Assembly: GCF_044324875.1 (NCBI RefSeq)
Contig: NZ_CP172185.1
Length of the DNA: 64,000 nt
Strand: one strand, 5' to 3'
Source of the DNA: Escherichia coli
GTDB lineage: Bacteria > Pseudomonadota > Gammaproteobacteria > Enterobacterales > Enterobacteriaceae
Shown: positions 4,039 through 51,188 of the stretch, one piece after another
Numbering within the stretch: the first letter of the stretch is position 1
Layout: every line of letters begins with the position of its first letter
Notes under the pieces: generated by a model
What the model was told of the DNA's origin: nothing
The model's database searches: none
Seen by the model: the letters and a program-made list of their open reading frames with translations, nothing else
Made by a program: the position numbers and the translations under genes

Positions 4039-4145
4039 AGCCGTTTCCTTTTTATAATCACGACATAAGGAATATAAAAATGGCAGAGGGAAGGGAAAAG
4101 GGAAAGAGAAAAATCTTAAGGCCAGCCGGATGCTGACCTTATTTG

Positions 4146-4364
4146 TTAACGTTCAATAATTTGCGAAACATCATCACGGTTAATTTGCATCGCGTTACCT
4201 TGCTGATCGTGATAACTCACCAGCCCGGTATCATCATCAATTTCAGGTTTTCCATCGGTCAAAATCATACGGCCATCTTTGGTCGCCATGACGTAATCAC
4301 TGGAACACCCGGAAACAGCAAACGCCAGTCCGACTGCAGAAATTATTACTGCCCATTTTTTCAT
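4146..4364 (-). CDS. ygdR: small lipoprotein, DUF903 family
   Basis: 72-aa ORF with lipoprotein signal peptide and lipobox (LAFAVSG-C); paralog of ygdI in this window. Confidence 0.85.
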
Positions 4365-4501
4365 CCGGTTATCCTCATTTGGCCCACCTATGATAATAGT
4401 CTGTTTATAAACCGACGTTATATATCTTGAAAGCAGGAAAATCTTAAACTGTGAGGGGAACAGGAGTGAGTACGCCCTCCCGCAGGAGAGCGTACGGAGT
4501 A

Positions 4502-27953: not shown

Positions 27954-28030
<77 letters not shown>

Positions 28031-31917: not shown

Positions 31918-32108
31918 GGTACTCCTCGGCTTGATGCACCGATCGTGACGCAAAATTCACTTTGATACAAGGAGAGTGCTAACCATCAGAATTATCTGGA
32001 TATCCTGGCGAAGCCGCGTCAGTAACATATGCTGAATAGTGTTAGGCGTTAATTTTAGCCTGTTAATCAATACTATTAAGATTTATTAATCGCTTTAAGG
32101 AGAAGATG

Positions 32109-32336
32109 ATGAAAAAGACTGCCGCAATTATTTCTGCCTGTATGCTGACTTTTGCCCTGAGCGCCTGTTCCGGTTCGAACTATGTGATGCACACCAATGA
32201 CGGACGTACCATCGTCTCTGACGGCAAACCACAGACTGATAACGATACCGGTATGATTTCGTATAAAGACGCTAATGGCAACAAACAGCAGATCAACCGT
32301 ACTGACGTGAAAGAGATGGTCGAACTGGATCAGTAA
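32109..32336 (+). CDS. ygdI: small lipoprotein, DUF903 family (paralog of ygdR)
   Basis: [20 protein letters not shown] lipobox; start chosen at second ATG for SD spacing (AGGAG at 32098..32102). Confidence 0.85.
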
Positions 32337-32351
32337 TTCGCGATCGCAAGG

Positions 32352-32558
32352 TAAAAAAAAGCACCGCAATTAGGCGGTGCTACATTAATCACTATGGACA
32401 GACAGGGTAAATGTACAGGAAGTGAAAAAAGGTAGCTTTGCTACCATGGTCTGAATCGCAGACCAATTGCAAACACAACAACACAACATCACAACCGTAA
32501 GCCAAAAGTTCACCAGAACACGCATTCCGATAAAACTTTTCGTTCCGGCTCAGGAAGT
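32352..32558 (-). ncRNA. gcvB: GcvB small regulatory RNA (Hfq-dependent, amino-acid transporter regulon)
   Basis: Reverse complement begins ACTTCCTGAGCCGGAACGAAAAGTTTTATCGG.., contains the GU-rich region GTTGTGATGTTGTGTTGTTGTGTTTGCAATTGG and ends in terminator GCACCGCCTAATTGCGGTGCTTTTTTTT; divergent from gcvA. Confidence 0.85.
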
Positions 32559-50777: not shown

Positions 50778-51143
50778 GTCGACAGGGAGTCAGACAACGA
50801 AGTGAACATCAGGATGATGACACTTCTGAAGGACACACCAGGATGGTGTTTCAGGGAAAGGCTTCTGGATGAAGCGAAGAGGATGACGCAGGACGCGTTA
50901 AAGGACACCTCCAGGATGGAGAATGAGAACCGGTCAGGATGATTCGGTGGGTCAGGAAGGCCAGGGACACTTCAGGATGAAGTATCACATCGGGGTGGTG
51001 TGAGCAGGAAGCAATAGTTCAGGATGAACGATTGGCCGCAAGGCCAGAGGAAAAGTTGTCAAGGATGAGCAGGGAGCAACAAAAGTAGCTGGAATGCTGC
51101 GAAACGAACCGGGAGCACTGTGAATACAGTGCTCCCTTTTTTT
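50778..51143 (+). ncRNA. csrB: CsrB small RNA (CsrA-sequestering, multiple GGA motifs)
   Basis: About 366 nt with roughly 15-18 repeats of CAGGA(U/A/C)G-like motifs (catCAGGATGatg, acCAGGATGgtg, tCAGGATGatt, ttCAGGATGaag, ttCAGGATGaac, cAAGGATGag ...) and terminal hairpin gggagcactgtgaatacagtgctccc + T7; boundaries approximate. Confidence 0.85.
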
Positions 51144-51188
51144 ATTCCTGCTATTCTTCGCGGCAGTTTTTCTTATTGAGGTTGCTTT

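Follow-up and report, generated by a model that had tools for sequence, protein, structure and literature searches.

Two small lipoprotein genes of one family, ygdI and ygdR, lie on opposite strands of a 64,000-nucleotide stretch of the Escherichia coli chromosome (the window), which raises the question of whether they are paralogues and why both copies have been kept. The original prediction, made from the letters of the window alone, described them as duplicated genes of unknown function about 28 kb apart, retained within one conserved region and perhaps differing in regulation or partners. Our analysis makes it very probable that the two are the known genes ygdI and ygdR, that they arose by an ancient duplication, and that their products are independently controlled stress lipoproteins which most likely act as a binding or protective module and were kept for different stresses.

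Paralogy and identity of the two genes

Both open reading frames are intact and lie on opposite strands where they had been placed, with a measured spacing of 27.7 kb. The ygdI gene (32109..32336, plus strand) encodes 75 aa plus stop and ygdR (4146..4364, minus strand) encodes 72 aa plus stop, each being recorded in the ORF list and recognised by Pfam, NCBIfam and the RefSeq annotation. YgdI has a signal peptide of residues 1–19 with the lipobox LSAC, a lipobox cysteine, Cys20, encoded at 32166..32168, and a mature DUF903 domain of residues 20–75; in YgdR the signal peptide spans residues 1–18, the lipobox is VSGC, the Cys19 codon lies at 4308..4310 and the mature DUF903 domain spans residues 19–72. 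Pairwise BLASTP aligned the proteins along their whole length with 43 of 72 residues identical (60%), 75% positives, one 1-residue gap and E = 1e-31, well above chance. The identity past the lipidated cysteine is 57–58%, showing that the match is not owed to the signal peptides, and the pattern quoted in the original prediction (YVM.T.DGR.I..DGKP..D.DTG..SY.D..GN...QINR.DV) consists of exactly the residues common to both. Tblastn with both proteins found no third copy in the 64-kb window, where the next matches had E > 0.6.

The gene names, the DUF903 assignment and the description as proteins of unknown function all hold against BLASTP, the HMMs, the RefSeq annotation and the literature. Pfam PF06004 (DUF903) matches both proteins over profile positions 1–49 of 49, with 83.9 bits for YgdI and 85.9 bits for YgdR against a cut-off of 27, and NCBIfam NF033216 (lipo_YgdI_YgdR, 'YgdI/YgdR family lipoprotein') matches over positions 1–71 of 71, with 113.2 and 105.9 bits against a cut-off of 42; the HMM scores of both proteins are 3–4 times the curated cut-offs. 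Among 5,426 complete E. coli genomes in RefSeq, at least 5,423 annotate the one as ygdI and at least 5,414 the other as ygdR (>99.7%), and nearly all carry both segments at ≥99% identity, so that the window represents E. coli core chromosome. The DNA here is 100% identical to that of many genomes annotating those names, and the RefSeq neighbours under the matches (csdA, ygdI, gcvA and tas, ygdR, ygdQ) establish orthology by neighbourhood. The pair is thus one of already known and already annotated paralogues after which the family itself is named, and nothing about it is new; with the genes, paralogy, family and structures all in public databases, its discovery value is small.

Fold, family and sorting of the mature domain

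YgdR residues 21–72 are 100% identical to PDB 2JN0/3FIF ('lipoprotein YgdR'), and YgdI matches PDB 2RA2 with E = 2.5e-29, differing at 4 of 54 aligned residues. Five further DUF903 structures have been solved (5CAI, 3BDU, 2RD1, 2RB6 and 2K57); the depositors' names for the solved structures carry no function ('putative' or 'uncharacterized' lipoprotein), and the PDB entries of the family contain 6–8 chains, a count that is no guide to assembly in solution. An AlphaFold model of YgdI, built with a 51-sequence family alignment, predicted six strands and reached pLDDT >90 across the mature part, which is a small beta-barrel of about 50 residues, as in the solved family members. The mature proteins are acidic, with a mass of about 6 kDa and a pI of 4.2–4.7. 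The turn and loop residues DG[RK], GKP, D.DTG and QINR.DV are kept between the copies, and it is well supported that YgdI and YgdR have diverged at about 40% of surface residues. The only invariant column of the 51-sequence alignment, from which frameshifted or chimeric assembly products among 'representative' proteins were left out, is the lipobox cysteine.

Each protein opens with MKK and a hydrophobic core followed by LSAC (YgdI) or VSGC (YgdR), a lipoprotein signal with the cysteine that had been predicted for both. The residue at +2 after this cysteine is serine in the two proteins (C-S-G and C-S-S). Aspartate at +2 is the inner-membrane retention signal of lipoproteins, and it is present in neither, so the serine predicts Lol-dependent sorting of YgdI and YgdR to the outer membrane. 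Published proteomics detects both and lists them as lipoproteins with these lipobox cysteine sites (PMC3210124). YgdI has been treated as an outer-membrane lipoprotein in published work that detected it in outer-membrane fractions and in vesicles, where oxidative stress enriched it (PMC8284480); the literature searched gave no localisation for YgdR.

The barrel is of the Sm type, but its sequence identity to the Sm/LSm/Hfq small barrels is low (6–12%, and 6–18% to Hfq and Sm in the structural alignments), the LSM profile gave no match, and hmmscan at E ≤ 0.01 returned DUF903 alone, which leaves the proteins outside the Sm1/Sm2 class. As exported proteins with a lipid anchor in the periplasm, YgdI and YgdR are implausible RNA chaperones. 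MliC, Ivy, OsmB, OsmE and YbaY are likewise small, Rcs- or sigma-S-induced and either Lol-sorted or periplasmic, and published lists of what Lol inhibition or ampicillin induces name them together with ygdI and ygdR. Their folds and families are different, DUF903 proteins are not known to inhibit lysozyme or any other enzyme, and the likeness is one of mode of working only.

The family comprises 288 clusters at 50% identity among 1.84 billion representatives (E ≤ 1e-3) and consists almost wholly of single-domain lipoproteins of 66–82 aa. A protein of 508 aa (P0248) has seven short DUF903 profile matches at profile positions 36–56; it may contain repeats of a short motif that resembles the domain, or the matches may be spurious. 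PHROGs gave weak matches only, restricted to the first two-thirds of YgdI, and PADLOC returned nothing, so these searches provide no link to a known phage-protein or defence family. Phage records that matched turned out to be wrongly filed contigs of bacteria or very small fragments lacking annotation, and were set aside.

An ancient duplication in two separate neighbourhoods

To date the duplication, we compared the copies with each other and across species. The nucleotide identity between ygdI and ygdR is 59%, and third positions agree at 21 of the 43 codons with identical amino acids, meaning that the synonymous sites of the two copies are essentially randomised with respect to each other. 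Around each copy a distinct local gene order is conserved. The order csdA←ygdI→gcvB←gcvA was found in 80 of 80 Enterobacteriaceae species loci, two of which end before gcvA, and also in one Erwiniaceae-labelled genome; the profile scan of genome contigs that supplied these loci yielded Enterobacteriaceae YgdI orthologues only, and the synteny of ygdR and of distant taxa was collected gene by gene. The order rppH←mutH→(ygdQ)→ygdR→tas, in which ygdQ is a TerC gene, is present in Salmonella, Enterobacter, locus L092, Musicola (Pectobacteriaceae) and Rouxiella (Yersiniaceae). A neighbour-joining tree of about 55 columns, drawn without support values, places ygdI and ygdR in separate clades with several families in each. 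The dN/dS ratio of both genes is 0.04–0.13 for E. coli against Salmonella, Enterobacter and Kosakonia; a value of 1.17 against K. oxytoca was discarded, as an indel shifts the ungapped codon comparison. Taken together, the scrambled synonymous sites, separate syntenies, separate clades and dN/dS values indicate that the duplication predates the radiation of these Enterobacterales families and that both copies have been kept under strong purifying selection since then.

No partner gene is conserved beside either copy or beside distant family members, and since distant DUF903 members stand among unrelated genes, the neighbourhood points to none. In some Enterobacterales a third DUF903 paralogue is present elsewhere on the chromosome besides ygdI and ygdR, for example between carB and kefF in Enterobacter (L086/L087, 5001–5234) and adjoining a YfaZ-family gene in Pantoea (L089, 4001–4237).

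The idea that the copies are retained within one conserved region goes further than the gene map supports. The interval between them contains mutH, rppH, ptsP, lgt, thyA, ppd, recCBD, ptrA, argA, amiC, tRNA-Met, mltA, tcdA and csdEA, that is, unrelated housekeeping genes, and in some strains a genomic island splits it. In E. coli ATCC 11775, a type VI secretion island is located at the tRNA-Met locus within the ygdI–ygdR interval, so the distance between the genes is strain-dependent. The tRNA-Met gene (27954..28030, minus strand) is present as one copy here and as three tandem copies in E. coli N3 and ATCC 11775. Elsewhere in the window lies the CsrB small RNA gene (50787..51146, plus strand; Rfam RF00018, 383 bits), which is unrelated to the lipoprotein pair.

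Start sites and control regions

By direct reading of the sequence, the ribosome-binding site of ygdI is AAGGAG (32097..32102, plus strand), which is kept across 18 aligned genera. It stands 6 nt from the ATG at 32109 but only 3 nt from an adjacent in-frame ATG that opens a longer, intact frame of 76 codons in the ORF list (32106..32336, plus strand), and this difference in spacing makes the 75-aa form of YgdI likelier than the 76-aa form. Compared with the reference E. coli ygdI, the ATG at 32106 is extra, and some annotations start there (76 aa). Positions 32106..32111 read AAGATGATG in the window as against AAGAAGATG in E. coli E69 (L001), and the extra in-frame ATG created by AAGATGATG accounts for the coexistence of 75-aa and 76-aa annotations.

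The csdA–ygdI spacer of 155 bp is common to ygdI and the divergent csdA. In its alignment across 18 Enterobacteriaceae genera, the top-conserved block is aTATGCTgaaTAGTGTTAGG (32027..32049, plus strand), composed of (T)TATGCT followed by TAGTGTTAGG and the only strongly conserved block in the spacer, with TTATGCT invariant and GT..GG nearly invariant. We infer from this conservation that TATGCT at 32028..32033 (plus strand) is a candidate −10 element of ygdI. An earlier guess for a sigma-S −10 element, CAATACT (32068..32074), is E. coli-specific and not kept in other genera, and it was dropped in favour of TATGCT. A sigma-70 promoter scan gave zero plus-strand matches upstream of ygdI and zero minus-strand matches in the ygdQ–ygdR spacer, with overall counts similar to those in shuffled sequence.

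The ygdR gene is preceded by the ribosome-binding site GAGGA (4372..4376, minus strand), which by direct reading lies 7 nt ahead of the start codon and is also kept in Salmonella and Enterobacter. Further upstream, the motif TTTAAGATTTTCC (4436..4448, minus strand) is conserved in E. coli, Salmonella, Enterobacter and L092 and is a candidate RcsB-type activator site of ygdR. Its half-sites TAAGA/TCCT are separated by a spacer 1 nt shorter than in the RcsAB-box consensus. In Enterobacter, L092 and Rouxiella, ygdQ is missing upstream of ygdR while ygdR and its upstream region remain, and this persistence argues for a promoter belonging to ygdR itself. An inverted repeat, GTACGCTCTCC..GGAGGGCGTAC (4470..4497, minus strand), immediately follows the stop codon of ygdQ and lacks a trailing T-run, and it may be a ygdQ 3′ structure that parts ygdQ from ygdR transcription. 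At the other end of the gene, the terminator scan found an intrinsic terminator between ygdR and tas (4117..4141, minus strand), with a 10-bp stem, a T-rich tail and a folding energy of −15.5 kcal/mol (z = −3.2).

Published stress responses

Literature on expression bears on the prediction of distinct regulation. Expression of ygdI depends strongly on sigma-S in E. coli and Salmonella and is lower in a Citrobacter rodentium cpxRA mutant (PMC6153362, PMC5437024), with PMC5105897 likewise a source for its sigma-S/Cpx dependence. The ygdR gene is Rcs induced according to a table comment in PMC5105897, a secondary source. Inhibition of LolCDE raises ygdI 25–53 fold and ygdR 8–12 fold (PMC5105897), an acid shift raises both (PMC2270276), and YgdI is among the most actively made proteins in ampicillin-treated persister cells, with RpoS, MliC and Ugd (PMC6414554). 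These published data indicate that the stress control of ygdI and ygdR is distinct yet overlapping. The proposal of distinct regulation therefore stands in part: it agrees with the reported regulators (sigma-S and Cpx for ygdI, Rcs for ygdR) and with the upstream conserved blocks, which differ between TATGCT... at ygdI and TTTAAGATTTTCC at ygdR, whereas the responses themselves overlap, both genes being among the more strongly induced ones after envelope damage. A role of YgdR in the import of the peptide aldehyde ALLN with SbmA was considered and dropped after a full-text literature search gave nothing relevant.

The junction of ygdI with GcvB

Immediately downstream of ygdI is the gene for the small RNA GcvB (32353..32558, minus strand; Rfam RF00022, 199 bits against a gathering score of 42). 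The two genes converge, with the GcvB 3′ end 16 nt past the ygdI stop codon, and this convergent arrangement is kept in 80 of 80 species loci. The sole hairpin that the terminator scan found downstream of ygdI is the GcvB terminator hairpin (32360..32381), which folds on the plus strand too, but without a U-tract in the ygdI direction. Given the distance of only 16 nt, phenotypes of ygdI knock-out or transposon mutants need checking for effects on GcvB. This applies to the one deletion or insertion phenotype that turned up in the literature searched, in which ygdI transposon mutants, and also hfq mutants, grow better in trimethoprim and sulfamethoxazole (PMC8767339); the advantage may be a polar effect on GcvB, which is Hfq-dependent, and not one of the lipoprotein. 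The ygdI–gcvB junction is a matter of transcription termination and is not evidence for a common function.

Proposed role and alternatives

The reading that we consider very probable, that of an anciently duplicated pair kept for different stresses, would work as follows. It is well supported that each gene forms an independent unit by itself, with a separate ribosome-binding site and control region upstream; ygdR has its own terminator, and ygdI would end against the hairpin of the convergent GcvB. From the signal sequences and general lipoprotein biology, each prolipoprotein would be exported by Sec, lipidated at the lipobox cysteine through Lgt, LspA and Lnt, and handed over to the Lol pathway with serine, not aspartate, at +2. 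The Sm-like barrel would then hang from the inner leaflet of the outer membrane on a tether of 2–4 residues. On the published data, sigma-S (general stress and stationary phase) and Cpx would deploy ygdI, and Rcs (cell-wall and lipoprotein-trafficking damage) would deploy ygdR. A domain of about 50 residues with no match to a catalytic family and no conserved adjoining gene is unlikely to be an enzyme, and the barrel is most likely a small stress-induced binding or protective module of the periplasmic envelope. Both copies would have been kept through the difference in stress deployment together with the divergence of their surfaces.

The alternative that fares best, although we regard it as unlikely, is that YgdI and YgdR are biochemically interchangeable and that the second copy provides dosage or back-up only. 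It overlaps the regulatory part of the preferred explanation and differs only on the functional divergence of the proteins. The 60% identity, the equal length and fold, the sharing of every turn and loop motif, and the induction of both genes by Lol inhibition and acid shift are all consistent with it. However, each copy is under strong purifying selection with paralogue-specific residues in at least four bacterial families, and the upstream motifs and reported regulators differ.

It is considerably less probable that the two proteins assemble into one hetero-oligomer in which both subunits are needed, such as an Sm-like ring at the inner face of the outer membrane. The genes are unlinked, on opposite strands and under different reported regulators, and many genomes outside Enterobacterales, e.g. 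that of Niveibacterium, have a single copy. Likewise, about 200 plasmids of roughly 2.5 kb have just one of the two plasmid types described below. The number of chains in the PDB entries says nothing on assembly in solution, and co-purification data were not found in the literature searched.

We give very little weight to the suggestion that the closeness of the genes reflects a functional link to the envelope enzymes encoded by lgt, amiC and mltA, or to gcvB. The first three are indeed located between the paralogues, and ygdI and gcvB are 16 nt apart with a common hairpin in 80 species. But the interval consists mainly of housekeeping genes with no relation to the pair (recBCD, thyA, ptsP, mutH and argA), it is split by a genomic island in some strains, distant family members have unrelated neighbours, and the ygdI–gcvB junction concerns termination.

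Finally, a likeness due to chance or the signal peptide, or a copy that is recent, horizontally acquired or a decaying pseudogene, can be dismissed almost with certainty, as nothing was found in favour beyond GC contents of 46% and 43% against a window mean of 52%, low GC being common among short secreted-protein genes, and it is already refuted by E = 1e-31 and the 57–58% mature identity, with open reading frames intact in >99.7% of genomes, dN/dS of 0.04–0.13, scrambled synonymous sites and synteny kept at the order level also against it.

DUF903 genes on small mobilizable plasmids

Relatives also occur outside the chromosome. Mature YgdI matches 381 plasmid records in tblastn, 278 of them mobilizable, and DUF903 relatives are the principal or sole cargo of hundreds of mobilizable ColE1-type plasmids of 2.5–4.1 kb. 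Neither PHROGs nor PADLOC recognises these proteins. The hosts are Enterobacter, Klebsiella and Salmonella, and the relatives are 53–64% identical to YgdI. On the 4.1-kb ColE1-type plasmids, two divergent DUF903 types form a fixed tandem pair, as in plasmid NZ_CP029125.1 (L094, 25–258 and 280–507) and in L095, the plasmid records with relatives numbering about 264–381 in all; the second gene of the pair occurs alone on the plasmids of roughly 2.5 kb already mentioned, again in Enterobacter, Klebsiella and Salmonella.

That such tiny plasmids bear DUF903 genes suggests a selectable benefit. One tentative extension, which we regard as unlikely, is that DUF903 proteins confer a directly selectable benefit on the envelope, for instance protection from an outside agent (bacteriocin, phage, type VI effector or compound acting on the cell wall), with the chromosomal pair as resident stress-regulated versions that perhaps form Sm-like oligomers. 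The question of what DUF903 proteins do is in any case a tractable one, given a separately kept pair, strong induction after envelope damage and carriage on small plasmids.

The same two-type pair was also seen on a metagenomic contig (L090, 3753–3986 and 4001–4231), where it adjoins a MipA gene and a two-component system. This contig has TraI_2 relaxase and integrase genes as well, which suggests that the DUF903 tandem pair moves on larger mobile elements too.
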